A DNA stretch of 44,656 nt from IMG/VR virus record IMGVR_UViG_3300045988_024106, one strand, 5' to 3'. This DNA is from a virus (Duplodnaviria; Heunggongvirae; Uroviricota; Caudoviricetes). Positions 1 through 44,656 of the stretch are shown piece by piece (the first letter of the stretch is position 1; each line of letters starts with the position of its first letter). Both the position numbers and the translations under genes were made by a program. The notes below the pieces were generated by a model. It made no database searches, was not told where the DNA came from, and saw nothing but the letters and a program-made list of their open reading frames with translations.

Positions 1-85
1 ACGGAAACCGACTTAGCGGAAGCAATTGAAAGCCTGGAGAAGTTACGGGAGTACCGAAGTAATATTGATGAGTAAGAAAAAAAAG
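1..85. repeat. 85-bp terminal duplication, identical to 44572-44656 (circular closure or terminal redundancy)
   Basis: Direct comparison of the first and last 85 nt of the window; contains the 3' end of the CDS that starts at 44416. Confidence 0.9.
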
Positions 86-6692: not shown

Positions 6693-6924
6693 GGGTAATC
6701 ACCTCTGATTTCGTCTTGCCTTCGTTGTCAGCAGCGGCTGCCTTTGATTCGTCCTGCTGCTGCCGTTGTGTTTTCTTCGCTAACTCGGCCTGCGCTTCTT
6801 GCTGTTGCTGTGAAACGAGATTCGCCCGGCCTTCGTTCCAGCCGCTGCGGTATTGAAAGTAGCCGTGTGCGTAAGCCAGGATGATGAAACATGCTCCAGC
6901 TACGACAGTTGCTTTAAGATTCAT
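6538..6924 (-). CDS. Rz: i-spanin (Rz-like)
   Basis: 128 aa; N-terminal transmembrane segment (KATVVAGACFIILAYAHGYF) then Gln/Glu-rich coiled coil; RBS AAGGAG; overlapping Rz1 partner. Confidence 0.65.
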   Translation of the reverse strand: MNLKATVVAGACFIILAYAHGYFQYRSGWNEGRANLVSQQQQEAQAELAKKTQRQQQDESKAAAADNEGKTKSEVITREVVKYIRTPGRSVCTFDDAHVLLKSRAVANANSIPGYDDDAAAVQTGAAK

Positions 6925-6940
6925 GTTTCTCCTTTCTCGA

Positions 6941-6968
6941 TAAGTAAAGCCCCGCCATAAAGCGGGGC
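6941..6968 (-). terminator. Terminator-like hairpin ~20 nt upstream of the Rz start (minus strand)
   Basis: gccccgc-cataaa-gcggggc (6949-6968); minus-strand tail TTTACTTAT; lies between element R1 and Rz. Confidence 0.45.
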
Positions 6969-7034
6969 GCTAGTCCTTATCATTTAAACATAGAAACGGC
7001 GTAATCTCAGTAAACCCGTTACTTTTTACACAAG

Positions 7035-7177
7035 CAATAGAGTATGGCCCTTCCGAACGCGTCAGCGTAACTACACTCAGGACTTACGTCCCGCTCCGCT
7101 ACCTGCCCGCGCCGCGGTCGCTTGTTCATACTTCACAAGCTCAGGTGGAGCTTAGCATATTTTCAGTGAAAAGTCAA
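7035..7177. repeat. Element R1: ~145-bp structured intergenic element, paralogous to R2 (20251-20395); candidate sRNA/regulatory element
   Basis: Alignment by eye to 20251-20395; core 7112-7160 differs from 20330-20378 by one base; contains hairpins gcttgt-N9-acaagc and aagctc-N5-gagctt. Confidence 0.6.
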
Positions 7178-7242
7178 CTATTCGAATAGTTTATTCCAAC
7201 ATTTACAATTCGGTGGAATAACTGGAATACGTAAATAAATAG

Positions 7243-7276
7243 TTTACAGACACCAACATAATAGGGTACCATTCGG
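7243..7276 (+). promoter_or_regulatory. Promoter/operator box (P-box) upstream of the mini-clamp gene
   Basis: tttacagacaccaacataatagggtaccattcgg; related to boxes at 9398, 42810, 18253(-), 20065(-); holds a TATAAT-like hexamer and an imperfect AATAG-N4-CTATT palindrome. Confidence 0.55.
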
Positions 7277-7299
7277 ATAACTTAAACAGGAGATGTAAA

Positions 7300-7821: not shown

Positions 7822-7827
7822 AACTAA

Positions 7828-7848
7828 GGCCCCTTAACGGGGCCTTTT
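7828..7848. terminator. Bidirectional rho-independent terminator
   Basis: ggcccc-ttaa(c)-ggggcc hairpin followed by TTTT; A-rich on the opposite side; between convergent CDS 7300..7821 (+) and 7850..8311 (-). Confidence 0.7.
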
Positions 7849-8311: not shown

Positions 8312-9411
8312 TAATCCCCTTTCAGATAATCAGCAACACGTTTATCGAGTTCCGCCATCTGCTTAAGCGTGAGCGGATTCCCGAAACCATCTACAGATAT
8401 TACGCGAAACTCTTCCGGCGATATACCGCTGTTACGGAAAATCTTACCGCGAACTGGCCCTAATGCTTCATCCTGAAACCACGCCGGTTGTTGTTTAAGG
8501 AACTCGTAATAGGTGGTGTCTGCACTTACCTGAGTACCGCCGTCCGCACCCTTAGCCGCGCGTTTTGCGCCTTTATCGAGGAAGTCGAACTCAGAACTGA
8601 TTACAGGCGCGGTGGTGCTTCGGCAATTAGGATGCGCGGGTGGCATCGGCCCTTTACCAATTTCCCACGTCATTCCGTCTCTGGCCCTGCAAATCGTGCT
8701 GGTGCGGCTGTCCAGCGTTGACACCCACTCGTATTTCTCGATGATGTCGTCGTTCCGGCGATACGTCTCGTTACGGGCTTCATTGGATACGTGAGACAGC
8801 GCGGTGCGGATTACGGTAGCCGCGTTACGTTCAGAGATGTCAGCCAGTCCGCCAGCGCCTACGACATTCTTAACAATCTGTCGTGTTGTCTGACCTTGTA
8901 CGAACCCCATCTTAACGCCCGTTACAAGACGGGCGACTTCGGTTTCACCCCAGCCATCCATCAGCTTAGTGAAGTCGACAGGCTTGTCGCTCAGTGAGAG
9001 CGGTTGAAACTCAGCAGCGGCCCACACCTGTTCAGCGGTGGGTGTAACGAATTCTGCGTTAACGTTGGTGGCTAGTGTCTTTACGTTCCACTCAGCCTCA
9101 TACGCTGCCAGCTCCTTAAGGTCTTCTGTCAGCTTTGTTCGCCAGTCGCCTGTAAGTCCGGTTAGTGCTTCTTCAATGTCGCGTAACAGTTTATTCAGTC
9201 GCGCAGTGCTACGCCCGTCGTCACCGAATAGCAGCACCTGCCGTTTGATTTCATCTCGCATTTCCTGGATAAACGGAGCGAGGTCTTTCACTTCACCGGA
9301 TGCGGTGCGTTGCAGCCAAATCTGGTGGCTGATTAGGGATGTAAGTAAGCTCATAGGCCCTCCTGTGGTATCGCCAGTGTAACGCATAAAAATAATATTT
9401 GCAGACACCAA
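8311..9411 (-). CDS. Head morphogenesis protein (Mu F / SPP1 gp7-like minor head protein)
   Basis: 366 aa; STLDSRTSTICRARDGMTW resembles the Phage_Mu_F family; located just downstream of the portal gene. Confidence 0.7.
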   Translation of the reverse strand: MVSANIIFMRYTGDTTGGPMSLLTSLISHQIWLQRTASGEVKDLAPFIQEMRDEIKRQVLLFGDDGRSTARLNKLLRDIEEALTGLTGDWRTKLTEDLKELAAYEAEWNVKTLATNVNAEFVTPTAEQVWAAAEFQPLSLSDKPVDFTKLMDGWGETEVARLVTGVKMGFVQGQTTRQIVKNVVGAGGLADISERNAATVIRTALSHVSNEARNETYRRNDDIIEKYEWVSTLDSRTSTICRARDGMTWEIGKGPMPPAHPNCRSTTAPVISSEFDFLDKGAKRAAKGADGGTQVSADTTYYEFLKQQPAWFQDEALGPVRGKIFRNSGISPEEFRVISVDGFGNPLTLKQMAELDKRVADYLKGD

Positions 9412-9431
9412 TATAATAGGGTACTATTCAG
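9398..9431 (+). promoter_or_regulatory. Promoter/operator box (P-box)
   Basis: tttgcagacaccaatataatagggtactattcag; exact TATAAT at 9412-9417 and palindrome AATAG-ggta-CTATT at 9415-9428. Confidence 0.6.
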
Positions 9432-9455
9432 TTATTGAAACGAGGATATAAAGAA

Positions 9456-9671
9456 ATGAAGTTAACTAAATTAGAGAAGAAAACAACAGAAGAAGCCATT
9501 AAACATGGCTATACCTTCAAAAACGACTCACATTTCACTAGCTTTCAGCAAGGGGACCGCACAATTAGAAAACTAATGGATAAGGGTTTTCTTGTAATGG
9601 TCGACGACGGGAATGGGGTTGAATACAGACCATCACAACGGGCTTTCGACTTCATAAAATACGGCGTATAA
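9456..9671 (+). CDS. Hypothetical protein (moron; possible small winged-helix protein)
   Basis: 71 aa from ATG at 9456 (RBS GAGGA); flanked by P-box and terminator; opposite strand to the surrounding head genes. Confidence 0.5.
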   Translation: MKLTKLEKKTTEEAIKHGYTFKNDSHFTSFQQGDRTIRKLMDKGFLVMVDDGNGVEYRPSQRAFDFIKYGV

Positions 9672-9678
9672 CGTTATT

Positions 9679-9704
9679 AGGCCCCATAACGGGGCCTTTT
9701 CTTT
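9679..9704. terminator. Bidirectional rho-independent terminator
   Basis: ggcccc-ataac-ggggcc hairpin followed by TTTTCTTT; between convergent CDS 9456..9671 (+) and portal (-). Confidence 0.7.
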
Positions 9705-13894: not shown

Positions 13895-14131
13895 TTAATC
13901 TTCCATACTTAGTAACACGTAACCAGGGAGGTACGCAGATACGTCCGCAACATGAATAACACGACGGTAAACAATACGACCTGTGTACTCACCGTTTTTG
14001 TATTCTCTCAGACACAAAGTATCATCCACTTTAAAGTTACGGTCGTTTAATCTCAGTTCCGCCAGTTTAAGGCCCGCCAGAACAGGCTCAAAATGCTCAG
14101 GTAATATCTTTAATTCATGGAACATACTCAC
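13895..14131 (-). CDS. ASCH (PUA-like) domain protein
   Basis: 78 aa; N-terminal pattern LKILPEHFEPVLAGLKLAELRLNDRNFKVDDTL resembles ASCH/DUF3850 domains. Confidence 0.45.
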   Translation of the reverse strand: MSMFHELKILPEHFEPVLAGLKLAELRLNDRNFKVDDTLCLREYKNGEYTGRIVYRRVIHVADVSAYLPGYVLLSMED

Positions 14132-16842: not shown

Positions 16843-17074
16843 TGCGATACTTCTCCAGAATCTCACCTACTCTATCGTATGCATATTCGTCCGGTATTAC
16901 CCCGTAGCCCAGGTCATTGTCCAGCTTAACTAGCATATCCAGGATACCGTTCAGATTGGATTCTAGTTTCGCGTAGTCCTCGTAACTTACATACCGCCCT
17001 TCATGAGAGTCCGGCACCGGCGTTATATCTACCGCACCCGCGAAATCTTCTGTTAAGTCGTATCGTACAACCAT
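16826..17074 (-). CDS. Hypothetical protein, tandem paralogue A (YV.YEDYAKLE motif)
   Basis: 82 aa from ATG at 17072-17074 (MVVRYDL...); shares MV.RY.L and G.YV.YEDYAKLE with the adjacent upstream gene. Confidence 0.45.
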   Translation of the reverse strand: MVVRYDLTEDFAGAVDITPVPDSHEGRYVSYEDYAKLESNLNGILDMLVKLDNDLGYGVIPDEYAYDRVGEILEKYRNEPRN

Positions 17075-17268
17075 CACTCCACCCCTTCCACACGTGTAAC
17101 TGACCCACAGTTCGCGCACTCGACGTAATCCGGGAACTGGTCTTTGTATTTCTGTAACTCGGCTTCGAGTTTCGCGTAGTCTTCGTACTCTACGTACCCA
17201 CCATCATCGCACGGGTTTACCGAACCACCTTTTTGATGGAACAACTCTAATTCGTATCTCTGTACCAT
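17074..17268 (-). CDS. Hypothetical protein, tandem paralogue B (YV.YEDYAKLE motif)
   Basis: 64 aa (MVQRYELELF...GGYVEYEDYAKLEAEL...); ATGA overlap with paralogue A. Confidence 0.45.
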   Translation of the reverse strand: MVQRYELELFHQKGGSVNPCDDGGYVEYEDYAKLEAELQKYKDQFPDYVECANCGSVTRVEGVE

Positions 17269-19852: not shown

Positions 19853-20043
19853 TTCACCCCTTTGAATTTAAAATTGTTGCCGATGAGTGTTAAATTATCT
19901 CGTAAGGCGTAACCATGTTTCTTTCGTACAAGACCCCATACGTCTACAGCGATACTATATTCATCTTCGTCCTGGGTAACTATCACGTACTGTCCGCAGC
20001 GTTTCGTTTTCACCAACTGACCCTTCTTAAACATAACCCTCAC
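19849..20043 (-). CDS. Hypothetical protein (first gene of the leftward early unit)
   Basis: 64-aa ORF; RBS GAGGAG; downstream of P-box 20065-20098. Confidence 0.45.
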   Translation of the reverse strand: MRVMFKKGQLVKTKRCGQYVIVTQDEDEYSIAVDVWGLVRKKHGYALRDNLTLIGNNFKFKGVK

Positions 20044-20064
20044 TCCTCTGTCTCGTTTCGATAA

Positions 20065-20098
20065 GTGAATAGTATCCTATTATGTTGGGGTGTGCAAG
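20065..20098 (-). promoter_or_regulatory. Promoter/operator box (P-box), leftward early promoter
   Basis: Reverse complement cttgcacaccccaacataataggatactattcac; palindrome AATAG-tatc-CTATT. Confidence 0.6.
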
Positions 20099-20164
20099 AG
20101 ATTAGTTACGTTGCCGTTGTGATTCTTTCGTGTAATAGGATAGCGAGCGAAACGAAACGAACGT

Positions 20165-20196
20165 GGTGCCGAAGGCACCAAGAGTGAGTGAGTGAG
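20165..20196. other. GC hairpin (ggtgcc-gaa-ggcacc) followed by (GAGT)n microrepeat
   Basis: Hairpin 20165-20179 and gagtgagtgagtgag 20182-20196; on the minus strand the hairpin is followed by a moderately T-rich tail. Confidence 0.4.
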
Positions 20197-20250
20197 CTTG
20201 CGGTTCTGACCTACGGCAAATCAGTAACTTATATACTTAGGCGGGAATTA

Positions 20251-20395
20251 CAATAGACTATGGCCCTTCCGAATGCGCCAGCGAGACTCACTCCACACGT
20301 CGAGACGTGCTCGTTTCGCCTGCCGCGCACCGCGGTCGCTTGTTCATACTTCACAAGCTCAGGTCGAGCTTAGCATATTTCTTAGTAAAAGTCAA
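20251..20395. repeat. Element R2: ~145-bp structured intergenic element, paralogous to R1 (7035-7177); candidate sRNA/regulatory element
   Basis: Alignment by eye to R1; nearly identical core 20330-20378; the upstream half has a different hairpin (cacgtc-ga-gacgtg) at the position of R1's ggac-ttac-gtcc. Confidence 0.6.
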
Positions 20396-20442: not shown

Positions 20443-20471
20443 TTGCTTTTACATTCCCGCTATCCTATACT
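20443..20471 (+). promoter_or_regulatory. Sigma70-like rightward early promoter (TTGCTT-17-TATACT)
   Basis: -35 at 20443-20448, -10 at 20466-20471; ~30 nt upstream of the first plus-strand gene. Confidence 0.4.
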
Positions 20472-23359: not shown

Positions 23360-23376
23360 AGGGGCGTTAAGCCCCT
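23360..23376. terminator. Hairpin terminator overlapping the XRE gene stop (aggggc-gttaa-gcccct)
   Basis: GC hairpin between convergent primase-helicase (+) and XRE (-) genes; T-rich tail on the minus strand. Confidence 0.5.
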
Positions 23377-23582
23377 TCACCGAACGCCAGCCACTTGGCG
23401 TCTACTTCCAGCACTTCTGCCAGTTTAAACAGCGTCGCCGGGCGGACATCCTGAGTTACACCGAGTGCCAGTTGGTTAATCGCGCCCTGGGAAACCCCAG
23501 CCAGAACAGCCAGACGGCGCTGGGAGATGCCGAGTTCTTTACGGCGTTGTTCTACACGGATGCCTAGTTCAGATGGTTGCAT
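23367..23582 (-). CDS. XRE-family (Cro/CI-type) HTH transcriptional regulator
   Basis: 71 aa; ...RRKELGISQRRLAVLAGVSQGAINQLALG is a canonical HTH_3 motif; sole minus-strand gene in the plus block; RBS AAGGAG. Confidence 0.75.
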   Translation of the reverse strand: MQPSELGIRVEQRRKELGISQRRLAVLAGVSQGAINQLALGVTQDVRPATLFKLAEVLEVDAKWLAFGEGA

Positions 23583-23610: not shown

Positions 23611-23677
23611 TGAATAGTACCATATTAATTATTTTAGGAAAGCCCATTGACATCATGAATAGTTAGCTATTATAGTT
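23611..23677. promoter_or_regulatory. Divergent control region with two operator palindromes and a TTGACA -35
   Basis: tgaatagtaccatatta (23611-23627) and tgaatagttagctattatagtt (23656-23677); TTGACA at 23647-23652; lies between the XRE gene and gene 23709. Confidence 0.55.
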
Positions 23678-23885: not shown

Positions 23886-24412
23886 TGTTAGAGAAATTCT
23901 TAGTATTACTGGAACGTTTCGTAGTTGCGCATGAACTGATTGCTGCGAACAGTGTGAAACAACCGACTAATAAATCTGTAGGTGAATTGACTGTTGACGT
24001 CGCGGTAACGGGGGTAGAGACAGTTAAAAAAGAACTGGCTAAAGCACTTGAAGAAGTCGAGAAGGCGAAAGAAATCCCGGTTGAAGGTGAAGACGTCGTT
24101 GACACTAAACCGGCAGAAGATGAGAAGCCGAAACGCAAGCCTGGCAAATCAAAACCAGCCCCTAAACCTGTAGAGGAACCAACACCGGAGCCGGAAGAAG
24201 AAGTCGATTACCAGTCTCTGCGTGACCAGATTCAGGCTATCGACGATGCGATTAACGAAGGTCCGAGCGATGCCGCGTGCGACGATTCCGATGAACTACT
24301 GGAAGAGTTCACCGGTAAGAAAATGAAGATTGCCGCGATTAAAGACGAAGACCTGGCTGAATATCTGGAACGCCTCACGGCAATCAAGAACAAGTATTTC
24401 GAAGAAGAATAA
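23885..24412 (+). CDS. Acidic early protein (possible DNA mimic), function unknown
   Basis: 175 aa, roughly a quarter Asp+Glu with Pro/Glu/Lys-rich linker (EEPTPEPEEEVDY...); early position. Confidence 0.4.
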   Translation: MLEKFLVLLERFVVAHELIAANSVKQPTNKSVGELTVDVAVTGVETVKKELAKALEEVEKAKEIPVEGEDVVDTKPAEDEKPKRKPGKSKPAPKPVEEPTPEPEEEVDYQSLRDQIQAIDDAINEGPSDAACDDSDELLEEFTGKKMKIAAIKDEDLAEYLERLTAIKNKYFEEE

Positions 24413-24425
24413 CTACTTAACTTAT

Positions 24426-24449
24426 GGTGCCCTCGCTATTGAGGGCACC
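24426..24449. other. Stable hairpin (9-bp stem ggtgccctc / gagggcacc) without a U-tract
   Basis: Perfect inverted repeat 14 nt after the stop of CDS 23885..24412; not a canonical terminator. Confidence 0.4.
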
Positions 24450-24467
24450 AAACTGAGGGTCAGAATT

Positions 24468-24740
24468 ATGATTTACCAACTCTACCGAGCCGTAGACAGG
24501 CGGGATAGCACAGAGGCGTTATGGCTGTTGCGCGCGCCGTCCGGTGCGCACCAGATGGAAGAGATGGCGTACTTAGGCAAAGTACCACGGCCTAAAGATA
24601 TAGGCCGTCACGTGTCGCAGATTAAGCGCACGACTTTCGCCAAGCCTGACTTTTATGTCTTCGAGTCGATGTATGGGTGGGCTATGCACTGCGAACATAA
24701 GACCCGGCATTTAATTGACCAGTGGGAGAACAGGGTATGA
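24468..24740 (+). CDS. Hypothetical protein
   Basis: 90 aa from ATG at 24468 (MIYQLYRAVDRRD...); the track ORF begins upstream at 24330. Confidence 0.4.
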   Translation: MIYQLYRAVDRRDSTEALWLLRAPSGAHQMEEMAYLGKVPRPKDIGRHVSQIKRTTFAKPDFYVFESMYGWAMHCEHKTRHLIDQWENRV

Positions 24741-25234
24741 ATTGGCATGAAGTTTTTGACTACGACCCCGCTACAGGTAAATTATTTTGGAAAATAAGTC
24801 CGTCAAAATCTGTAAAAATAGGGCAAGAAGCTGGCAGTACGAGGGCGGACAACGACGGGAGTGAATTTAAAATACTACGTTTTAACGGGACTACTAAACT
24901 TATCCACCACGTAGTTTGGGAGATGTTTAACGGGCCGATAGCGCCTGGGGAAGTAATTCGTCATAAAAATAAAGATAGAACTGATAACAGAATAGAAAAT
25001 CTTATAAAAATGCGTCGGGGCAGTATCGCACACGGCACCAGCATACGGACGGACAATACTTCAGGGGTTAAAGGTGTTGGGTTTCATAAACGCTATGGTA
25101 AGTGGGTCGCAAGAATTTATGTAGACGGCAGGCCGATTTATTTAGGGGCTTACGATAAGTTAGAGAACGCGGCTAAGGCTCGCAGGCAAGCCGAGATTAA
25201 ATACGGGTTTACAGTTAACGGAGCTGAGAAATGA
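24737..25234 (+). CDS. HNH homing endonuclease with AP2-type DNA-binding domain
   Basis: 165 aa from ATG at 24737 (RBS GGAGA); HNH signature ...IRHKNKDRTDNRIENL... and AP2-like GVKGVGFHKRYGKWVARIYVDGRPIYLGAYDKLENAAKARRQAE. Confidence 0.7.
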   Translation: MNWHEVFDYDPATGKLFWKISPSKSVKIGQEAGSTRADNDGSEFKILRFNGTTKLIHHVVWEMFNGPIAPGEVIRHKNKDRTDNRIENLIKMRRGSIAHGTSIRTDNTSGVKGVGFHKRYGKWVARIYVDGRPIYLGAYDKLENAAKARRQAEIKYGFTVNGAEK

Positions 25235-26481
25235 TTCTAAAAGAACGCGGCGGCAATAATGACGTACACGCCTTACTGTCGCCGTCAGGTGCTAAAAAGT
25301 GGCTAAGCTGCGCCGCGTCACTGGCCTGTGAAAAAGATATTCCTAACACGTCAGGTAAAGCCGCGGTATTAGGCACAGCTATGCATACAATAGCCGAGGT
25401 CCATTTAAATCAGTACATCAAAGGCACTGCGCTGCCGTTAGAACGTGAAGTTGGCGCTTACGTGCTGGATGGGGGTAAAGGTCAGATTAAGGCGCTAATC
25501 AGCCCGATTAAAGGCGCGGTACTGATTACGGCGGATATGATTGAGCAGGTGCGTAAGTACACCGACTACTGCAAACCGATTATCGATGTAGCGACTTACG
25601 CCAAGCTCGAGATGCGCGTCAATCTTACTGAGGTATTGCATCCTGGCTACGAAGGTGTCGAGACGTTCGGAACTGCTGACCTTGTTGCCGTACAGGAACT
25701 GGCAAACACTGACGAGCACATGTTAATTATCGGCGACCTGAAAACTGGGCGGCATCGTATCGAAGCGAAAGAAAACAAGCAGCTTATGCTCTATGCTCTC
25801 GGTGTTTATCGCCGACTCAAGAGACGTTATAACATCGCAGTTGTTCGTCTGGTCATCTTCCAGCCGTACGCTGGCGGGGCGTCGGAGTGGGACATCTCGG
25901 TTGAAGGTCTGGAACTGTTCGCTAAGTTCGCACAGAAACGTGCACTGTTGGCTCTTGATGCCTATTTCCGCGGTAAGAAGAACCTGAAAGCGTCGGACTT
26001 CAAGCCGTCTGTCGATGGTTGTCAGTGGTGCCGGTTCTCTGAACAGTGTGCTGCGCGTACAAAAACCGTTAACGCGGTACTGGTGGAAGAGCTGGAGGAC
26101 GACTTTGCACTGGAACTGACGCCGGAGCAACTCGTAACTGAGTATGAGAAGCTGCCGTTGTTGCGCCAGCACATAGACAAGGTTGAGAAAGCGATGGCCG
26201 CCGCATTGCATTCAGGTAAGAAAGTGCCAGGGTACAAGCTGGTTGAAGGCCGTCCTGGTAATCGTGCGTGGAAAGACTCCGATGCGATTGAAGTGTCACA
26301 CGGCGACATTCTCAAAAAAGAGGTATTGATGTCGCCTACGGAGGCAGCAAAAGTTCTTTCGGCGGACGAGATGGCAGCGCTTGAGCCGTTTATCACGCGT
26401 AAGCCGGGCGCACCATGTGTCGCATCGGCAGACGACAAGCGTCCTGAGTGGAATCAGGTAACAGAGGAGGATTTAGAATGA
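25231..26481 (+). CDS. DUF2800-family PD-(D/E)XK exonuclease (Cas4/RecB-like, Fe-S cluster)
   Basis: 416 aa; N-terminal ALLSPSGAKKWLSCAAS and C-terminal Cys cluster DGCQWCRFSEQCAAR; lies upstream of DUF2815 and PolA. Confidence 0.65.
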   Translation: MILKERGGNNDVHALLSPSGAKKWLSCAASLACEKDIPNTSGKAAVLGTAMHTIAEVHLNQYIKGTALPLEREVGAYVLDGGKGQIKALISPIKGAVLITADMIEQVRKYTDYCKPIIDVATYAKLEMRVNLTEVLHPGYEGVETFGTADLVAVQELANTDEHMLIIGDLKTGRHRIEAKENKQLMLYALGVYRRLKRRYNIAVVRLVIFQPYAGGASEWDISVEGLELFAKFAQKRALLALDAYFRGKKNLKASDFKPSVDGCQWCRFSEQCAARTKTVNAVLVEELEDDFALELTPEQLVTEYEKLPLLRQHIDKVEKAMAAALHSGKKVPGYKLVEGRPGNRAWKDSDAIEVSHGDILKKEVLMSPTEAAKVLSADEMAALEPFITRKPGAPCVASADDKRPEWNQVTEEDLE

Positions 26482-26714
26482 TTCGTAAAATGTTCAGAGT
26501 AATTGGCGGTTTTGTGGCGTTTTTAAGCTATCACTTTATGATGTTGCCGGTTTATTCTTTGCTTTTTCCATTAATGGCTTATATTGCGGTTAAGTATAAA
26601 ACTGTAGACCTGGAAGACTTAATGGAAGTTAATGAGATAAAGTTTGTTCAGAATTTGGAGTGGCCTTTCGAATACGTACTGATAGTTGAGAAAATAACTG
26701 GCTGGAAGGGTTGA
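26478..26714 (+). CDS. Small membrane protein
   Basis: 78 aa from ATG at 26478 (RBS AGGAGG); hydrophobic segments FVAFLSYHFMMLPVYSLLFPLMAYIAV. Confidence 0.4.
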   Translation: MIRKMFRVIGGFVAFLSYHFMMLPVYSLLFPLMAYIAVKYKTVDLEDLMEVNEIKFVQNLEWPFEYVLIVEKITGWKG

Positions 26715-26739
26715 CACCTGAATAGTTAGCTATTATAGT
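26710..26739 (+). promoter_or_regulatory. Promoter with operator palindrome (TTGACA + tgaatagttagctattatagtt)
   Basis: TTGACA at 26710-26715; the 22-nt block 26718-26739 is identical to 23656-23677; followed by a short hairpin (26751-26766) and the DUF2815 gene. Confidence 0.55.
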
Positions 26740-26793
26740 TCTAATCACTGGCCGGGCAGCTTCCCGGAGTAAACTTAAAAGCGAGAAATCACG

Positions 26794-27420
26794 ATGGGAC
26801 TGAAATTAAATCTGCGTAAAGTAAACACTGCATGGGTTAACGTATTCGAACGCGAAAAAGACCGTGAAAACGATGATGGCTCAATCACTAAAGGCCAGTA
26901 CAGCGCGACTATCATCCTGCCGTCCGACCATGCTCAAATCGACGCGCTATACGACACTGTTTACGCTGTAGTTGAAGAAGCGTTAGGTGCAGCCGCCGCT
27001 GAGAAATGGATGAAGTCCAACTACGGCGAAGGCAAGCACATGGATAAATGCGCGATTAAAGACATTGCCGAGCGCGACAATCCGTTTGAAGACTTCCCAG
27101 AAGGCTTCTACTTCAAAGCGAAGGCACAGAAACAGCCGCTGATTGTAACCTCTAAAAAAGGTGAGACTCAGGTAGAGCAGGACTTCAACGTAGACGGCGA
27201 ACAGATTGAAGGCGAACAGGTTTACAGCGGCTGCGTCGCTAACGTAAGCGTTGAAATCTGGTTCAGCCAGAAATATAAAGTCCTCGGCGTTAACCTGCTG
27301 GCGATTAAATACGTTGGTGAAGGTAAAGCGTTCGGTGGTTCTAAAGTAGTCGCAAGCGTCAATGACCTGGAAGACGACGAAGAAGATGGAGCACCACGCC
27401 GTGAACGCCGCCGTCGCTAA
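26794..27420 (+). CDS. DUF2815-family protein (putative ssDNA-binding replication factor)
   Basis: 208 aa; conserved position between the DUF2800 exonuclease and PolA; basic C-terminus APRRERRRR. Confidence 0.55.
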   Translation: MGLKLNLRKVNTAWVNVFEREKDRENDDGSITKGQYSATIILPSDHAQIDALYDTVYAVVEEALGAAAAEKWMKSNYGEGKHMDKCAIKDIAERDNPFEDFPEGFYFKAKAQKQPLIVTSKKGETQVEQDFNVDGEQIEGEQVYSGCVANVSVEIWFSQKYKVLGVNLLAIKYVGEGKAFGGSKVVASVNDLEDDEEDGAPRRERRRR

Positions 27421-27439
27421 TATCTGAATCAATTTAACT

Positions 27440-27462
27440 AAGGCCCTTCATTGGGCCTTTTT
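27440..27462 (+). terminator. Rho-independent terminator/attenuator before the DNA polymerase gene
   Basis: aaggccc-ttcatt-gggcctt hairpin followed by TTTTT. Confidence 0.6.
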
Positions 27463-27479
27463 ACTAAGGGTCGAAAATA

Positions 27480-29681
27480 ATGAGTTACCTGTTCTTAGAC
27501 TTTGAAACATTCTCCGAAGCCGATTTAAAGAAAGTCGGCTCCTACGCTTACGCCGAACACCCAACTACTGAAGTGCTTATCTGCACGTATGCTTTTGACG
27601 ACGAGCCTGTTCGGGTATGGGATTGCACCGACGGCAGCGACATGCCTGGCGATTTGCACCGCGCGTTACGCCGTCTGGTTAAACCGAACAGCCGCATCAA
27701 GATGGTGTGGCACAACGGCTCAATGTTCGACCGCCTCATCATGAAACACTGCTGGGGTTTTGATATTCCGGTAAGCAACACCATTGATACGATGATTTGG
27801 GCGTTCCGCCACGCGCTGCCGGGTTCACTTGATGCATTGTGCGAAGTGCTGGGTGTATCCGCGGACAATGCAAAAGATAAACGCGGCAAGGCGCTGATTC
27901 AGCGTTTTTCTAAACCGACGCCGAAGAACTACAAAATCCGTCGCTACACCGCCGAAACACACCCGGGCGAGTGGGCGCTGTTCATCAAGTACGCCGTGAG
28001 CGACATCACTGCGATGCGTGAAGTCTCCCATAAGCTGCCGAGGTGGGGTAACTCCGAGTTTGAGGACCGTGTACTGGAACTGGACCAGTTAATTAACGAC
28101 CGCGGGTTTAAGGTTGACGTCGCACTGGCGGAAGCCGCGATTGAGGCCGTGGAGAAACACAAGGCACAGTTACAGGAAGAAGCCCAACGCAAATACGGCG
28201 GCTCGCTTACTGGTAAAGACTTCCTGCCAATTCTACGCGAACTGGCTCCTGCGCACCGTATTCATAACGCACAGAAGTCTACGCTTAACGACCTGCTGGC
28301 GGACGATGATTTACCTGACGACGCCCGCGCGATTATAGAAATGCGCCTCGGGGCCGCATCCACCGCATCAACGAAATATAACCCGCTGTTGTTAGGCCGC
28401 TCTTCGGACGACCGCCGTCGAGGGTGTTTACAGTATGGCGGGGCAAAACGTACTCTGCGATGGGCGGGTAAAGGCTTCCAGCCGCAGAACCTGGCGCGCG
28501 GGTACTATCACGATGATGAACTGGATAAAGGCATTTCAGCGTTACTTAAGGGCCGCGCGCACCGCCGTTTTGATGTCGCTAAATTAACGGCATCGACGGT
28601 GCGTAGCTGCATCATACCGGAAGCAGGACATAAGTTTGTTGTTGCCGATTATTCTAACGTCGAAGGTCGCGGTTTAGCGTGGCTGGCCGGTGAAGAAACC
28701 GCGCTCGATACGTTCCGCGCTGGCCTTGATATTTACTGCGTAACCGCGGGTAAGATGTTCGGCATGGACCCAGATGATATTAAGAAAAACTTCAAGGAAA
28801 TCAGACAGATAGGCAAGGCTTGCGAACTGGGCCTCGGCTATGAGGGGGGTGTCGGAGCGTTCGTTACGTTCGCTAAAAACTTAGGTCTTGACCTTATTGA
28901 GATGGCAAAAACAATGGACGGGACTTTCCCCGACCACATCTGGGCTGCTACCGCACGAGGGTATGAGTGGGCGCGTATTCAGGAAGCCAAGCGACCGCCA
29001 CATCCCGGTGAAAAGGATGACCGACCATCGTATATTCTTGATAAGAAAGTGTGGCGCACATGTGACGCTATCAAGCGTATGTGGCGTGAGTCTCACCCTG
29101 AAACAGTAGCGTTCTGGCGAGACCTTAAAGATGGAATTTTAGCCGCTGTTCGCAATCCTGGTCGTGAATTTTGGGCAGGAGCACACTTGCGCAAGAATGG
29201 TGAAAGGGCTATCCGCATATGGCGTACTGTTGAATTTGATTCGTCCGGTAGGAAGGTTCCTGGTTGGTGGTTGTGTATGGAGTTGCCGTCGGGTCGTATC
29301 CTCTCGTATCCGGGGATCGGCGTTAGCGTGACAAAGGAAACAGACGAAGACGGACGGGTAAACACGAATGTGCGAATCAAGTACCAAGGCGAAAACCAGT
29401 TAACCCGCCAATGGACTACCCTGTACACACACGGTGGCAAAGCCTGCGAAAACATTGTCCAGGCGCTGTGCCGTGATTTACTCGCGTATGCGATGATTAA
29501 TGTTGAGGGTGGCGGGTATCCAATCGTGCTTTCGGTACACGATGAACTGGTATGTGAAACTCCAGACACCCCCGAGTATACGGTGGCTGAACTGGAAAAA
29601 TTAATGTGTTCGCTGCCTGAGTGGGCCGAGGGGTTCCCTCTTGTAGCGGAAGGTCAGGAGTTAAAACGTTATGCTAAGTAA
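27480..29681 (+). CDS. Family A DNA polymerase (PolA-like with 3'-5' exonuclease domain)
   Basis: 733 aa; N-terminal exonuclease motif LFLDFETFS, large polymerase domain; downstream of DUF2800/DUF2815. Confidence 0.75.
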   Translation: MSYLFLDFETFSEADLKKVGSYAYAEHPTTEVLICTYAFDDEPVRVWDCTDGSDMPGDLHRALRRLVKPNSRIKMVWHNGSMFDRLIMKHCWGFDIPVSNTIDTMIWAFRHALPGSLDALCEVLGVSADNAKDKRGKALIQRFSKPTPKNYKIRRYTAETHPGEWALFIKYAVSDITAMREVSHKLPRWGNSEFEDRVLELDQLINDRGFKVDVALAEAAIEAVEKHKAQLQEEAQRKYGGSLTGKDFLPILRELAPAHRIHNAQKSTLNDLLADDDLPDDARAIIEMRLGAASTASTKYNPLLLGRSSDDRRRGCLQYGGAKRTLRWAGKGFQPQNLARGYYHDDELDKGISALLKGRAHRRFDVAKLTASTVRSCIIPEAGHKFVVADYSNVEGRGLAWLAGEETALDTFRAGLDIYCVTAGKMFGMDPDDIKKNFKEIRQIGKACELGLGYEGGVGAFVTFAKNLGLDLIEMAKTMDGTFPDHIWAATARGYEWARIQEAKRPPHPGEKDDRPSYILDKKVWRTCDAIKRMWRESHPETVAFWRDLKDGILAAVRNPGREFWAGAHLRKNGERAIRIWRTVEFDSSGRKVPGWWLCMELPSGRILSYPGIGVSVTKETDEDGRVNTNVRIKYQGENQLTRQWTTLYTHGGKACENIVQALCRDLLAYAMINVEGGGYPIVLSVHDELVCETPDTPEYTVAELEKLMCSLPEWAEGFPLVAEGQELKRYAK

Positions 29682-29802
29682 ACTGATTATCGCGGTACTG
29701 GCAGGATTTGCCGCCGGTGTCTACTGTCACGAGGGTCAATACGGCATGATTGTCGCCGTGTTAGGCATGTTCATCGCAATTTATCTGTGGGTGCTGGAAT
29801 GA
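29671..29802 (+). CDS. Small hydrophobic peptide (43 aa)
   Basis: Manual translation MLSKLIIAVLAGFAAGVYCHEGQYGMIVAVLGMFIAIYLWVLE; overlaps the PolA stop. Confidence 0.3.
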   Translation: MLSKLIIAVLAGFAAGVYCHEGQYGMIVAVLGMFIAIYLWVLE

Positions 29803-29888
29803 AAATCTACTGGTTCTACGAAGAAGACTGTCGAATCTGTCCGCGCTGCGGGGTTGAGCATACAAAACGAGAGGGGTGCGTATTATGA
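29799..29888 (+). CDS. Small CxxC zinc-ribbon-like peptide (29 aa)
   Basis: Manual translation MKIYWFYEEDCRICPRCGVEHTKREGCVL; ATGA overlaps at both ends. Confidence 0.3.
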   Translation: MKIYWFYEEDCRICPRCGVEHTKREGCVL

Positions 29889-30076
29889 AAGAAGAATGTT
29901 TTAGCAACACCAAAGCGTTAGTAGATATGCCGGAGTGGGAATTTATCATGGTAATGGGCGATGGGTTCTTTAGCGATGCTTGCACCGGGTGTACGCACAA
30001 AGGTGTTTACTATTCAGAACACGACATCTATCAAGCGTACTTCCTGCGAAACCCAGATGCGGAGCCGTTGTTATGA
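29885..30076 (+). CDS. Hypothetical protein
   Basis: 63 aa from ATG at 29885 (MKEECFSNTK...). Confidence 0.4.
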   Translation: MKEECFSNTKALVDMPEWEFIMVMGDGFFSDACTGCTHKGVYYSEHDIYQAYFLRNPDAEPLL

Positions 30077-30225
30077 CAATGTTTGTATTTTGGACGATAG
30101 TAACCATGCTCGCACTGTTACTCGGCGCTGGAATAGCTGCGATGTTCTGTTATGGCCTGTTCTTTAAGTTTGTCGGTGTTGCCGTTCTCGGTGGAGCTTT
30201 CCTTACTTGGATTCTGCGGTCGTGA
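30073..30225 (+). CDS. Small membrane protein (50 aa)
   Basis: MTMFVFWTIVTMLALLLGAGIAAMFCYGLFFKFVGVAVLGGAFLTWILRS; two hydrophobic helices. Confidence 0.35.
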   Translation: MTMFVFWTIVTMLALLLGAGIAAMFCYGLFFKFVGVAVLGGAFLTWILRS

Positions 30226-30506
30226 CTAAAGAGGGCCGCGTACAGAAATACGCAAAAGAGAGGTTCGAGGCCCTGGGCGGCCTCGTTCGTAAACTTTCCT
30301 ATGAGGGGCGCTCCGGCGCTCCCGACCTGCTGGTAATTCTCCCCGGGGGCATCGTCTGGTTCGTCGAGGTTAAGAAAGATGAAAACACGAAGCCGGACCC
30401 CCACCAGTTACGCGAGCACGAGCGGATGCGTAAACGCGGTGCGAATGTTTTTGTCGTCGGTTCGTACAAACAGGTTGACGACCTAATAGCGAACTATTAT
30501 AGTTAG
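30207..30506 (+). CDS. VRR-NUC domain nuclease
   Basis: 99 aa; GAPDLLVILPGGIVWFVEVKK carries the PD-(D/E)XK-like D...E.K core typical of VRR-NUC; start uncertain (TTG at 30207 or GTG at 30222). Confidence 0.6.
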   Translation: MDSAVVTKEGRVQKYAKERFEALGGLVRKLSYEGRSGAPDLLVILPGGIVWFVEVKKDENTKPDPHQLREHERMRKRGANVFVVGSYKQVDDLIANYYS

Positions 30507-30536
30507 TCCCACACCAACAATATAAGGAATTGAGAA

Positions 30537-30728
30537 ATGAAACACGAATATGACCGCAAACCAGCACGCGGCATCGTACCAGGCGACATGATTTTCAACG
30601 TTAAGACCCGCCAGCCTGTTGCCGTTGATACGGTGTTCGTCGAGTCGAATGGTAAACTGGTTATCGAAGATGCGACCGGTAACGTTACGGCGTTCGGGCG
30701 TAAAGAGCTGGTGCTGGTGGCGAAATGA
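30537..30728 (+). CDS. Hypothetical protein
   Basis: 63-aa ORF with RBS AAGGA. Confidence 0.4.
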   Translation: MKHEYDRKPARGIVPGDMIFNVKTRQPVAVDTVFVESNGKLVIEDATGNVTAFGRKELVLVAK

Positions 30729-31648
30729 ACTATTACAATGAGTGGGATAAAGGCGCAGCCGCGTGGCTGCGTGAATTAATAAAACAGGGTCACATACCTT
30801 TTGGAGTTGTAGATGAAAGAAGCATTACAGAAGTTAAGCCAGAAGACCTCGACGGGTTCACCCAGTGTCATTTTTTCGCTGGTATTGGCGGCTGGCCTCT
30901 CGCGCTCAGACTTGCGGGAGTTTCGGAAAATACGCCTCTCTGGACGGGAAGCCCGCCTTGCCAACCGTTTAGCGCGGCAGGAAAGCAACTCGGACATTTC
31001 GACCCGAGACACCTCGCGCCGGTATTCCTTGACCTCATCAGCGAGTGCCGCCCTCCAGTCCTCTTTGGGGAACAGGTTGCACCAGCAATTGCAAAATCGT
31101 GGATGTGCGATTTACAAACTCACCTGGAAGGAGAAGACTACGCCGTCGGGTTTGCCGTACTCCCAGCTTGTGGCGTCGGCGCACCGCATAAAAGAGAGCG
31201 ACTCTTCTTTGGTGCGTACCAACTGGCCGACACCGACAGCGAACGATTACAAAGGGAGCGGAGAGACAGTGATTCGCAAGGACGGGAAGGACAGAACATT
31301 CGACAGGCTGGACTACTCAACGGAGCAGGGACTGAAAGCGGCATGGGGGACGCCGACGGTTCAGAATTCGCGTCACGGCAGCTACAGCGAGGCGGAAACA
31401 AAAAGAGACCCGAACAATCTGCACAATCAATGCTACCTCGTGGTGGCAATCCGAATCGCAGCTTCTGGTCGGATGCTGACTGGCTCGGATGCCGTGACGG
31501 AAAATTTAGGCCAGTTGAACCCGGCACATTCCCGCTGGCTAATGGGATACCCGCCAGAGTGGGACGATTGCGCGGTTACGGCAATGCTATCGTCCCGCAA
31601 GTAGCTGCAGAATTTATAAAGGCGTTTATGGGGGCCATAAATGAGTAA
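30725..31648 (+). CDS. DNA (cytosine-5)-methyltransferase with two compensating frameshifts (+1 near 31219-31220, -1 near 31572-31576)
   Basis: Frame A holds motifs I (FFAGIGG), IV (PPCQPFSAAGK), VI-like (GEQV), VIII (APHKRERLFF) and X (GYGNAIVPQV); the middle segment with NWPTPTANDYKG and LNPAHSRWLMGYPPEW is in the frame of ORF 30813..31604. Confidence 0.6.
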   Translation: MNYYNEWDKGAAAWLRELIKQGHIPFGVVDERSITEVKPEDLDGFTQCHFFAGIGGWPLALRLAGVSENTPLWTGSPPCQPFSAAGKQLGHFDPRHLAPVFLDLISECRPPVLFGEQVAPAIAKSWMCDLQTHLEGEDYAVGFAVLPACGVGAPHKRERLFFGAYQLADTDSERLQRERRDSDSQGREGQNIRQAGLLNGAGTESGMGDADGSEFASRQLQRGGNKKRPEQSAQSMLPRGGNPNRSFWSDADWLGCRDGKFRPVEPGTFPLANGIPARVGRLRGYGNAIVPQVAAEFIKAFMGAINE

Positions 31649-33065
31649 GTTTCAAAGGCGCGAGTACCAGAAGCTCATGACCTCGTTCATGTTGCAACAC
31701 CATCGCTGCAACATATGGGCAAGCATGGGCGCTGGGAAGACTGGCAGCGTACTGTGGGCATTAAACCGACTGTTCCGCAACGGCCAACTTAATGATGACG
31801 ACCGCGTGTTAATACTCGCCCCGCTGCGCGTTGCGTCCGGCACATGGCCCGCAGAACAAGAGAAATGGCGATTCCCGTGTCTGAGTGTCGTAGATGCGAC
31901 CGGTTCAGAGAAGCGCCGTATCGCGGCGCTGGAGTCGGACGCTAACGTGGTATGCACAAACTACGAAGTTATCGAGTGGCTGATTGACTACTACGGCAAA
32001 GATGACTGGCCTTTTACCGTTATCGTTGCCGATGAAAGCACGAAGCTTAAATCATTCCGCAGCCGTTCAGGTGGTAGTAAGAGGGCGAAGGCGCTCAGTA
32101 AGGTGGCATTTGGAAAGGTTAAGCGTTTTATTAACCTGACGGGAACGCCGTCACCGAACGGCCTCAAAGACTTGTGGGGGCAGAACTGGTTTATCGACGC
32201 GGGCGAGCGCCTGGGTTCTTCCTACACGGCATTCACTGACCGCTGGTTTAACTCGGTACAGAAAGGTAAGTCGGCGATGGCGCGTGAATACCATGCACGA
32301 CCAGGTGCTGATAATGAAATCCACCAGAAGATGAAGGACATTAGCCTCACGATTGACGCCGCCGAGTGGTTCGGTTGTGAAGCTCCGATTATCGTACCGG
32401 TTGAAATCGACCTGCCGAAGAAAGCACGTCAGGCGTACATAGATATGGAGGAGAAGTTATTCGCGGAACTGGAGAGTGGGGAAGTTGAAGCGGCTAACGC
32501 AGCAGCGAAGACGTCTAAGTGTTTGCAGATTGCTTCCGGTGCCGTGTATGTGACTGGCGACGACGGAGAAGCAACGAAAGACTGGGAGAAAGTGCACGAT
32601 ACGAAACTGGATGCGCTCGAGTCCATTGTGGGGGAACTACAGGGTGCGCCGTTGCTGGTAGCATATCAGTTTAAGCACGAACTGGAGCGCATCCTTAAGC
32701 GATTCCCCCAAGCACAGGCGTTTGCAAAAGGTGCTAAGGGTAATAAGCAGATGGAAGCATGGAACCGTGGTGAAATCGAAATCTTATGCGTGCACCCCGC
32801 GTCAGCTGGGCATGGTTTGAATTTACAGGACGGCGGACATCATCTGGCGTTCATCTCACAAGGCTGGAACCTTGAGCACTATTTGCAGGTCGTTGAGCGT
32901 ATAGGCCCGGTCCGCCAGAAACAGGCAGGCCACGAGCGCCCGGTGTTCCTTTACCACATCGTTGCTAAGGACACGCTGGACGAGGTTGTTGCCGCGCGTA
33001 CGGACGAGAAAAAATCTGTACAGGAAGAGTTGCTTAATTACATGAAGAGACGAGGTAAGAAATGA
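31641..33065 (+). CDS. SNF2-family (DEAD/DEAH-like) helicase
   Basis: 474 aa; Walker A GAGKTG, DExx box VIVADEST, C-terminal helicase domain. Confidence 0.7.
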   Translation: MSKFQRREYQKLMTSFMLQHHRCNIWASMGAGKTGSVLWALNRLFRNGQLNDDDRVLILAPLRVASGTWPAEQEKWRFPCLSVVDATGSEKRRIAALESDANVVCTNYEVIEWLIDYYGKDDWPFTVIVADESTKLKSFRSRSGGSKRAKALSKVAFGKVKRFINLTGTPSPNGLKDLWGQNWFIDAGERLGSSYTAFTDRWFNSVQKGKSAMAREYHARPGADNEIHQKMKDISLTIDAAEWFGCEAPIIVPVEIDLPKKARQAYIDMEEKLFAELESGEVEAANAAAKTSKCLQIASGAVYVTGDDGEATKDWEKVHDTKLDALESIVGELQGAPLLVAYQFKHELERILKRFPQAQAFAKGAKGNKQMEAWNRGEIEILCVHPASAGHGLNLQDGGHHLAFISQGWNLEHYLQVVERIGPVRQKQAGHERPVFLYHIVAKDTLDEVVAARTDEKKSVQEELLNYMKRRGKK

Positions 33066-33577
33066 TGGATGGCGAGGAGTTGCTACTTAAGGCGCATCTG
33101 CTGTCGCGTGGTTTTGATGCGGACCGATTACGTGTAGTCTTAGGCTCTGGGGTAGCTACGTTTTACCTGTGGGGATTTGATGGTAGGCTTCGCGGATACC
33201 AGCACTACAAACCACATGCGGAAAAGAACTGTAAAAACCCTAAAGACGCGAGGTACTTTACCAGAACAACAAGGCCGTGTTTATGGGGGCTTGAGTATTT
33301 GCCGGAGAGCGGGGTGGTATTTGTTACTGAAAGCGTATTCAAAGCCGTAGCCTTGATGAATTGCGGGTTCAATGCCGTAAGCGCACTTGGGTCAAATATA
33401 CCAACCGACCTACGTCAGCAAATGTCACTTTTGCCGTATGACTGGGTGTGCGCGGGCGACAATGATAAAGCTGGCCTAAAGTTCAGCAAAACATTCACCA
33501 GAGGATTTGTGTCAAACGACCTTGATGAACTTTGTGAAGAAGAAATAACGTATCTTGCGAGGAAATTTACCAGATGA
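33062..33577 (+). CDS. Toprim-domain protein (DnaG-like primase catalytic core)
   Basis: 171 aa; Toprim-like VFVTESVFKAV (conserved Glu) and CAGDNDKAG (DxD). Confidence 0.5.
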   Translation: MMDGEELLLKAHLLSRGFDADRLRVVLGSGVATFYLWGFDGRLRGYQHYKPHAEKNCKNPKDARYFTRTTRPCLWGLEYLPESGVVFVTESVFKAVALMNCGFNAVSALGSNIPTDLRQQMSLLPYDWVCAGDNDKAGLKFSKTFTRGFVSNDLDELCEEEITYLARKFTR

Positions 33578-42702: not shown

Positions 42703-42809
42703 TCTTTAATCCTTTGGTTAAGAGGTTACGGGTTAATGGTAAATGCGCCAGACGGGAACCACCCGCTTTTCGTGTGCGACACTAGGCGCAAAATTATTCT
42801 ATCACATTA

Positions 42810-42843
42810 CTTGCAGACCCCAATATAATAGGGTACTATTCAC
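42810..42843 (+). promoter_or_regulatory. Promoter/operator box (P-box) for the moron island
   Basis: cttgcagaccccaatataatagggtactattcac; TATAAT plus palindrome AATAG-ggta-CTATT; upstream of the Imm-like gene. Confidence 0.6.
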
Positions 42844-42869
42844 TTACACCATCAATGAAGGGGTTTAAA

Positions 42870-44426: not shown

Positions 44427-44646
44427 ATACAACCGCACAATGACAAACACTCACGGCAGCACTATGACAGTAGACGTTTATGACGTGCTACGTGCTTTCG
44501 ACATCCGCGACCCGGCGTTACAGCACGCATTGAAGAAGCTATTGTGTATGGGCCTTCGCGGGCACAAAGATACGGAAACCGACTTAGCGGAAGCAATTGA
44601 AAGCCTGGAGAAGTTACGGGAGTACCGAAGTAATATTGATGAGTAA
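44416..44646 (+). CDS. Hypothetical protein (runs into the terminal duplication)
   Basis: 76-aa ORF (GTG at 44416; alternative ATG at 44440); 3' end lies in the 85-bp repeat and is followed by terminator 76-108. Confidence 0.4.
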   Translation: MTNKYNRTMTNTHGSTMTVDVYDVLRAFDIRDPALQHALKKLLCMGLRGHKDTETDLAEAIESLEKLREYRSNIDE

Positions 44647-44656
44647 GAAAAAAAAG
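44572..44656. repeat. 85-bp terminal duplication (copy of 1-85)
   Basis: Exact identity with window positions 1-85. Confidence 0.9.

Follow-up and report, generated by a model that had tools for sequence, protein, structure and literature searches.

A predicted promoter-fused leader RNA, present in two copies in a Kagunavirus-type siphophage genome

In lambdoid phages, the terminated leader transcribed from PR' (lambda 6S RNA, StxS RNA) can itself serve as a small RNA. The RNase III sites of phage T7 (R0.3, R1.1, and others) are irregular hairpins of about two helical turns found in both the early and the late regions, one of them in the 5' leader of the first early gene. Phage HK022 carries two related copies of another leader RNA, putL and putR, with two stem-loops each, one at the transcription start (PMC9378689). 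The put RNAs act in cis on RNA polymerase at the head of long, terminator-containing operons, and no dedicated protein factor is known for them (PMC9378689). They bind the zinc-binding domain of the beta' subunit and suppress pausing and termination in cis without protein factors.

The element described here occurs at two places, R1 and R2, in a stretch of 44,656 nucleotides (the window), and it very probably consists of a bacterial-type promoter and a conserved folded non-coding RNA, read leftward. In function its closest analogue would be the HK022 put RNA, which is not its homologue. Like put, it has two related copies per genome, two stem-loops (P1 and a P2-P4 rod) from about +2, and copies that head long operons with terminators. 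Unlike put, each copy has a dedicated promoter, the core measures about 100 to 110 nt rather than about 70 nt, and homology in sequence or structure is absent: the R1 model, run with filters off on HK022 24000-33500, the region with putL and putR, scored 10.5 bits at best (E = 0.34). HK022 is, moreover, a lambdoid temperate phage, whereas the carriers of the element are virulent siphophages, in which antitermination is hypothetical. The lambdoid PR'-tR' region shares with our locus the succession of a constitutive-looking sigma-70 promoter, a non-coding leader of about 200 nt, a hairpin, lysis genes (spanins), and structural genes. In contrast to PR', a Q-like antiterminator was not detected among the small phage proteins, no conserved -10-like pause element is present in the initial transcribed region of the element, and its leader has a conserved covarying fold, whereas lambda 6S RNA has no known need for one. 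With the T7 sites the element has in common related irregular hairpins of about two helical turns that are repeated early and late, but T7 has about ten sites between genes, and the element is present once or twice and always fused to a promoter at the transcription start.

Likewise, the element resembles the phage-associated motifs of Rfam, being a covarying fold of one phage lineage located upstream of a conserved operon, yet it matches none of those catalogued. The 4227 models of Rfam 15 gave no match anywhere in the window at gathering thresholds, matches around the two copies at E values up to 10 were at chance level, and a tRNA/tmRNA scan found none. Our literature search, which included the core sequence string, found no description of the RNA, and intergenic RNAs are not reported in the K1B4 transcriptome paper (PMC12645636). 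The element is an RNA family new to Rfam, of a known general kind.

The window comprises the entire genome of a Kagunavirus-type siphophage (Guernseyvirinae), closest to phages such as EcoPhCCP1, fKuEco01, and Golestan. Its gene map, read off the annotated relatives Schulenburg and Ivi, contains two leftward series on the minus strand. One starts at 20043 with small early genes, holins and endolysin, and further small genes, continues with TerS, TerL, portal, and head morphogenesis, and stops at a bidirectional terminator (7826-7846). The other starts at 6924, the ATG of the i-spanin gene, and comprises i-spanin, o-spanin, scaffold, major capsid protein, connectors, and tail tube. The R1 module is the only recognizable promoter ahead of the i-spanin, scaffold, major capsid, connector, and tail tube genes, and the R2 module lies upstream of, and co-oriented with, an operator-controlled early-left promoter and its operon. 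The first and last 85 bp of the window (1-85 and 44572-44656) are identical, owing either to terminal redundancy or to overlapping ends in the assembly of a circularly permuted genome. In the small-gene region, a 47-nt direct repeat (16958-17004 and 17161-17207; 79% identity, 203 nt apart) probably stems from two paralogous small genes.

A repeat search of the window paired R1 7108-7177 with R2 20326-20395 (89% identity) and R1 7035-7072 with R2 20251-20288 (87% identity), and alignment showed a variable middle splitting the two matching blocks. A covariance model built from relatives and run over the whole window gave exactly two matches, both on the minus strand, at R1 (7009-7148, 161.9 bits) and R2 (20223-20366, 109.5 bits). 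The resemblance far exceeds what chance would give. These searches bear out the proposal in an earlier note on this DNA that one element is present in two copies, and covariation (see below) does the same for its suspicion of a structured, regulatory-type RNA. Comparison with relatives showed that the repeat, read on the minus strand, extends from the -35 hexamer through the end of the RNA tail. The duplicated regulatory RNA suggested by the note is, therefore, only partly what we find: a structured leader RNA is indeed present twice, but the repeat includes the promoter, it is read on the minus strand, and R2 is accessory. Since the repeat has its own minus-strand promoter and ends exactly at the RNA tail, it is not a passive operator or origin between the early promoters, and the operator or origin that the note had considered for the divergent early region is replaced by a minus-strand RNA. 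Within the element, no shared DNA-binding site for the helix-turn-helix (HTH) proteins of the phage was found. The likeness of the R1 and R2 units extends past the core, as a linker motif (CUGA.AUU..GCCGU) and a 5'UTR block, ACUUAUCGA, are common to both.

The R2 promoter comprises the -35 hexamer TTGACT (20390-20395) and the extended -10 TGC-TAAGCT (20367-20375), both read from the minus strand and conserved in relatives, and promoter spacing puts the predicted transcription start at about 20360/20359. At R1 the same boxes are located at 7172-7177 and 7149-7157 (promoter 7149-7177, minus strand). Both copies have the layout TTGACT-N14-TGn-TAAGCT, with a 17-nt spacer that includes the TG, and in a search of the window this promoter type was confined to R1 and R2. 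We also compared 42 distinct regions upstream of i-spanin genes, which were picked via the protein and hence blind to the promoter. The -35 hexamer was TTGACT in 34, TAGACT in 6, TCGACT in 1, and TAGATT in 1, and TGn-TAnGCT was found in all 42 at a constant 14 nt from the hexamer. The TG was invariant and n was free (C in 25, A in 10, T in 6, and G in 1), as expected of an extended -10, so that a sigma-70 promoter is predicted. By sequence, both copies contain a -35-like hexamer, a 17-nt spacer, the TG, and a TAnnnT box, as such a promoter should. A plus-strand candidate inside the element, TTCACA-N18-CATATT, was rejected because its -10 decays to CACATT or CACACT in relatives.

R1 has, in addition, an upstream region of its own (7176-7230, minus strand), with a 16-bp perfect palindrome, AACTATTCGAATAGTT, that abuts the -35 hexamer and is centered at about -42, and with TTATTCC/GGAATAA repeats. 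Palindrome and repeats are kept in Jersey-type phages, phiEap-2, and TS33 and are missing from R2; they look like putative activator or repressor sites of the capsid-operon promoter. The TTATTCC repeat was not found at the other late operons of the window, and the regions upstream of the TerS and tail-chaperone operons are unlike that of R1.

The RNA core is composed of a 5' hairpin (P1), an irregular rod of 22 to 24 bp (P2-P3-P4), and a tail, AAGGGCC..CUAUUG. In R2, P1 is the 5'-terminal hairpin GCUUGU-(9 nt)-ACAAGC (20338-20358), assigned from pair counts and folding. The rod (20269-20335), assigned from RNAalifold, pair counts, and minimum-free-energy folds, consists of P2, in which CCG(C)GGUGC (20327-20335) is paired with GCAUUCGG (20269-20276), P3 (20313-20322 paired with 20279-20287), and the P4 hairpin (20296-20309), and it is followed by the conserved single-stranded 3' tail AAGGGCCAUAGUCUAUUG (20251-20268). 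The R1 core (7035-7142), delimited by covariance model, pair counts, and folding, is built likewise, with P1 at 7120-7140, P2 at 7109-7117 with 7053-7060, P3 at 7098-7105 with 7063-7071, P4 at 7079-7092, and the tail at 7035-7052. All of these features are on the minus strand. Between the two copies of the window P1, P2, and the tail are kept, and P3 and P4 differ. In Jersey-type phages a different hairpin, ACGCU-UUC-AGCGU, takes the position of P1, and in two variants (L008 and L061) P1 is lengthened to 7 bp. In the tail, GGAAGG is invariant and CUAUUG nearly so among Kaguna-type, Jersey-type, and R2 variants, and pieces of it persist in phiEap-2 and St162.

Evidence for this fold comes from comparison. 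Unguided, RNAalifold on a MAFFT alignment returned the long-range helix CCG(C)GGNGC / GCN'UUCGG, which is P2, and P2 and P4 were each found independently of the model. The proportion of cells paired in the MAFFT alignment was 90.6%, against 30 to 44% with the partners slid. In a structure-aware, model-based alignment of 39 distinct sequences it was 93.1%, against 30 to 43% with slid partners; this alignment is biased toward the model, but the model is also borne out by the MAFFT alignment and by the RNAalifold prediction, which was made independently. All five P4 pairs showed double changes in the 39-sequence alignment. P2 contains two near-invariant G.U pairs, and another of its pairs is CG in 22, UA in 15, and AU in 2 sequences. 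The covariation score was 0.242 versus 0.100 for shuffled alignments, none of 500 shuffles scoring as high. Pairing was 93.1% on the minus strand versus 80.1% on the plus strand, with 157 versus 13 G.U cells, and the RNA strand is therefore the minus strand of the window. Minimum-free-energy folding gave an identical architecture for four divergent cores, namely, R2 and R1 of the window, a Jersey-type copy, and an R2 of the L026 type. Folds computed from single sequences, for 250-nt stretches of either strand, gave no useful information (z-scores, -0.9 to -2.8), the fold being clear only through comparison and through folding of the core alone.

Core lengths vary from 66 to 72 nt in steps of 1 nt, and no reading frame is open in all 39 variants, which together indicate that the region is not coding. 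A small open reading frame from the conserved UUG after AAGGG was discarded, as it is 1 to 10 codons long and its start is lost in one variant (L033). A conserved sigma-dependent pause element in P1 was likewise considered and rejected, as it is not kept in L030, in the L008 type, or in Jersey-type phages. We are confident, short of certainty, in this anatomy of a promoter joined to a covarying, non-coding minus-strand RNA in two copies.

Downstream of the core, a linker of about 65 to 70 nt leads to a terminator-like hairpin. The R2 linker (20197-20250), delimited by comparison with relatives, bears the motif UAAGUAU..ACUGAUUUGCCGUAG, which is common to R2, R1, Jersey-type leaders, and an unrelated RNA of the one-copy phage BUCT789. 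It is followed by a (CUCA)n repeat (20182-20196) of variable copy number (2 to 7 copies among R2-bearing relatives) and by the hairpin UGGUGCC-UUC-GGCACCA (20164-20180), with the U-rich tail CGUUCGUUUCGUUUCG (20148-20163), so that hairpin and tail together (20180-20148) lie about 200 nt from the start. Among the neighbors of R2, the earlier note had listed a (GAGT)n microrepeat, a CGAAA-type repeat, and a GC hairpin. All three are present, at 20182-20196, 20148-20163, and 20164-20180, respectively, the first being (CUCA)n on the other strand, but, instead of being separate neighbors, they form part of the leftward transcript itself, as its linker and its terminator-like 3' end. The R1 counterpart is GCCCCGC-UUUAUG-GCGGGGC (6949-6968) with the tail UUUACUUAUC (6939-6968 in all, minus strand). 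Both hairpins pass a simple terminator scan (R2, -11.2 kcal/mol; R1, -17.9 kcal/mol), and between Kaguna-type and Jersey-type phages the R1 stem shows compensatory changes, CG to GC in 7 sequences and GC to AU in 1. The R1 hairpin ends about 25 nt upstream of the i-spanin ATG, which leaves no room for a further promoter.

Every R1 and R2 lineage has a GC hairpin between +190 and +220, whether or not the sequences are related; a second R2 lineage, for instance, has an unrelated and stronger hairpin at the same distance. The U-tracts, UUUACUUAU in R1, UUAGCGUAU in Jersey-type phages, and ACGUUCGUUUCG in R2, are poor and interrupted, so that the hairpins may terminate weakly or not at all, and in phiEap-2, TS33, and St162 the hairpin precedes the ribosome-binding site (RBS) with the U-tract entirely missing. 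Conserved alternative pairing of the core with the hairpin or the RBS, as in an anti-terminator, was not found; pairing of GGGCC in the tail with a hairpin arm was considered and rejected since it is impossible in R2.

The leftward and rightward early promoters that the earlier note had placed on either side of R2 are both there, as TTGCAC (20097-20092), a 17-nt spacer, and TACTAT (20074-20069) on the left and as TTGCTT (20443-20448), a 17-nt spacer, and TATACT (20466-20471) on the right. The early-left promoter (20062-20098, minus strand), TTGCAC-N17-TACTAT with an operator-like AATAG-N4-CTATT repeat, lies outside the repeated element and downstream of the R2 unit. It belongs to a family of sigma-70-like promoters with further members at 7241-7279(+), 9396-9434(+), and 42808-42846(+); a second family is found at 23646-23677(+), 26709-26740(+), and 30473-30504(+). 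In both families the spacer from the -35 to the -10 box contains the inverted repeat AATAG-N4-CTATT, which probably serves as the operator for a single phage repressor, e.g., the Cro-like HTH protein encoded at 23370-23582(-).

The Kaguna-type element was found in 181 phage records, at most about 43 of which have it in two places, and a Jersey-type version was found in 268 further records, in all of them as a single copy. In one-copy records the R1 position is the sole site. R1 is the ancestral copy and looks essential; in about 450 Guernseyvirinae records it forms the 5' leader of the operon for spanins, scaffold, capsid, and tail tube. R2 is an accessory duplicate, found in at most about 43. 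In Jersey-type phages the R1 element is located downstream of the preceding gene's own terminator, so there the R1 promoter must drive the capsid operon. The earlier note had seen R1 as a late-region copy beside the spanin genes; R1 does adjoin them, but it is more than a neighbor, being the obligate leader of the capsid operon and the ancestral copy. Control shared between early and late regions, which the note had proposed, is not general in the lineage, as most relatives are without R2 and have the same gene order, a finding of the kind that the note itself had named as counting against its reading.

In distant Guernseyvirinae, the promoter layout and a long structured leader are kept, while the core is shared in pieces only (covariance score for phiEap-2, 19.3 bits; no match for TS33 and St162). 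The spanin-operon leaders of phiEap-2, TS33, and St162 are 250 to 300 nt long, contain several GNRA-capped hairpins, and are partly homologous to the element (L328 690-1075, L329 600-985, and L325 20-525 in their loci); each has a conserved hairpin immediately before the RBS. The one-copy phage BUCT789 has another non-coding unit, likewise leftward, in the slot that corresponds to R2. This unit combines a promoter of its own with some 270 nt of unrelated sequence and a strong hairpin, and it has only the 3' linker and the early-left promoter in common with the window. Hence, R2 looks like the R1 promoter and core swapped into the 5' part of an existing leftward non-coding slot. A loose scan for the core pattern in IMG/VR and bacterial genomes left, among the matches listed and after filtering with the model, only Guernseyvirinae loci, which lends weak support to the absence of the element elsewhere.

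What might the module do? R2 appears, from its sequence, to be a self-contained leftward transcription unit that duplicates the leader module of the late capsid operon. Tentatively, and with well under even confidence, we favor a cis-acting leader that would control passage of the hairpin about 200 nt downstream. The folded 5' domain would act in cis, its target being the polymerase that made it or the transcript to which it belongs, and would set the share of transcription that passes the hairpin into the long operon, i.e., it would exert read-through or antitermination control, either factor-independent, as HK022 put RNA, or helped by a protein. Transcripts that stop at the hairpin would build up as a small RNA of about 210 nt, and R2 would provide the leftward early/lysis series with a second promoter, free of operator control and leader-bearing. 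Consistent with a cis-acting leader, R1 and R2 both point into long co-oriented operons with internal terminator-like hairpins, the R1 hairpin has to be passed for the capsid genes to be expressed, and position and orientation are constant across the subfamily. A survey of 30 small phage proteins revealed no known antiterminator or late regulator, and the only ones to stand out were an HTH_17 excisionase-like, a Cro-like HTH, and a DUF3850/ASCH-like protein. Against the cis-acting leader, a complete separate promoter follows R2 and one-copy relatives hold an unrelated non-coding unit in the same slot, so that a free-standing RNA gene fits at least as well. Possibly, though not probably, the functional product is the transcript of about 210 nt that ends at the hairpin, acting in trans, in the manner of lambda 6S RNA or StxS RNA, to titrate or guide a host or phage factor (as sponge, decoy, or short-seed pairing partner), with R2 raising the early dose. 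This would agree with the completeness of R2, which has its promoter and hairpin ahead of the separate operon promoter, with the strong hairpin of the unrelated unit, and with the conservation of P2 and the tail in sequence, beyond structure, which suggests recognition by a factor; within one genome, too, the differences between R1 and R2 fall in P3 and P4, and P1, P2, and the tail are preserved. A trans-acting RNA is harder to reconcile with the weak U-tails, with the constant position and orientation of both copies at operon heads throughout the subfamily, with the read-through of the R1 hairpin that the capsid genes need, and with the longest complementarity to other phage transcripts, 11 to 12 nt, which is within shuffled expectation.

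A lesser possibility is that the rod or the linker is an RNase III or RNase E site at which cleavage creates a defined 5' end of the operon mRNA, protected by the hairpin near the RBS, while P1 guards the primary transcript. The rod has about two helical turns with internal loops, P1 is at the extreme 5' end, the conserved linker contains AG|AUU, which we take to fit the RNase E consensus, all lineages, including those without a U-tract, keep a stable hairpin 8 to 14 nt upstream of the Shine-Dalgarno sequence, and T7 is a precedent for an RNA element repeated in early and late regions. For RNase III, however, shape counts for more than sequence, whereas in P2 and the tail the sequence itself hardly varies, and processing leaves the copying into a slot with its own downstream promoter unexplained. 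Overall, the weak U-tracts, the lack of anti-terminator pairing, the separate promoter, and the unrelated RNA in the slot keep both the small RNA and the processing element alive as rivals of the cis-acting leader. A leader that responds to a protein or ligand, as a riboswitch or translational operator in which binding alters termination or first-gene translation, seems unlikely. It would account for the conserved internal-loop and junction nucleotides, the tandem G.U pairs, the bulged C, and the GNRA-capped hairpins of the distant leaders, and a phage partner is conceivable in the DUF3850/ASCH-like protein, a predicted RNA binder; but core and hairpin are about 65 nt apart, the core has no alternative pairing with the hairpin or RBS, Rfam riboswitch matches are lacking, and nothing ties the ASCH-like protein to the element. 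A function at the DNA level, as operator cluster, replication origin, or packaging site, is very improbable. Conceivably, the location of R2 between divergent early promoters and beside replication genes, the short palindrome ATAG-A-CUAU in the tail, and the 16-bp palindrome beside R1 could be read in that way. Yet compensatory changes keep the RNA pairing, the 157 G.U cells are C.A mismatches on the opposite strand, R1 is in the late region distant from replication genes, R2 is missing in most relatives, and the operator-like AATAG-N4-CTATT motif is not in the element.

By analogy with put, one could go further and regard the cis-acting leader as a new class of factor-independent, polymerase-modifying antitermination RNA, put-like in function and unrelated in sequence, but this we consider doubtful. 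In virulent siphophages such an RNA, joined to a promoter of its own, would permit the entire capsid and tail operon to be transcribed; equally doubtful is the corollary that a second copy, in some phages, would serve the early/lysis series likewise.

In the search for phages for therapy and biocontrol of E. coli and Salmonella, Kagunaviruses and Jerseyviruses are among those isolated most frequently. The present analysis defines, with coordinates and secondary structure, a conserved module of promoter and RNA at the head of the capsid operon in about 450 sequenced genomes. If read-through control is true, this would be only the second phage lineage known with such an RNA; if the element is a small RNA or a processing signal, it would still be a compact, portable expression element. 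Annotation would be corrected too, since in several GenBank records hypothetical proteins are drawn across the element.

Some further features of these genomes are of note. The BUCT789 unit (L330 560-945, minus strand of the locus; promoter TTGACA-N17-TAAGGT; hairpin, -18 kcal/mol) may represent a second RNA that has yet to be described; on the strand opposite to it, GenBank annotates a hypothetical protein. The gene for the DUF3850/ASCH-like protein, a 78-residue protein with a PUA-like fold, is located among the small leftward genes (13898-14131, minus strand), with no link to the RNA element. Between the head-morphogenesis and portal genes, where Schulenburg has an HNH endonuclease gene, the window contains a small antisense unit on the plus strand (9396-9701), with a promoter box, a 78-codon open reading frame (9435-9671), and a terminator (9679-9697). 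Finally, the leader of the tail assembly chaperone gene (42703-42800, minus strand) contains nested GC-rich hairpins, GCGCC...GGCGC around CGGG-UGGUU-CCCG, and may be another structured leader.
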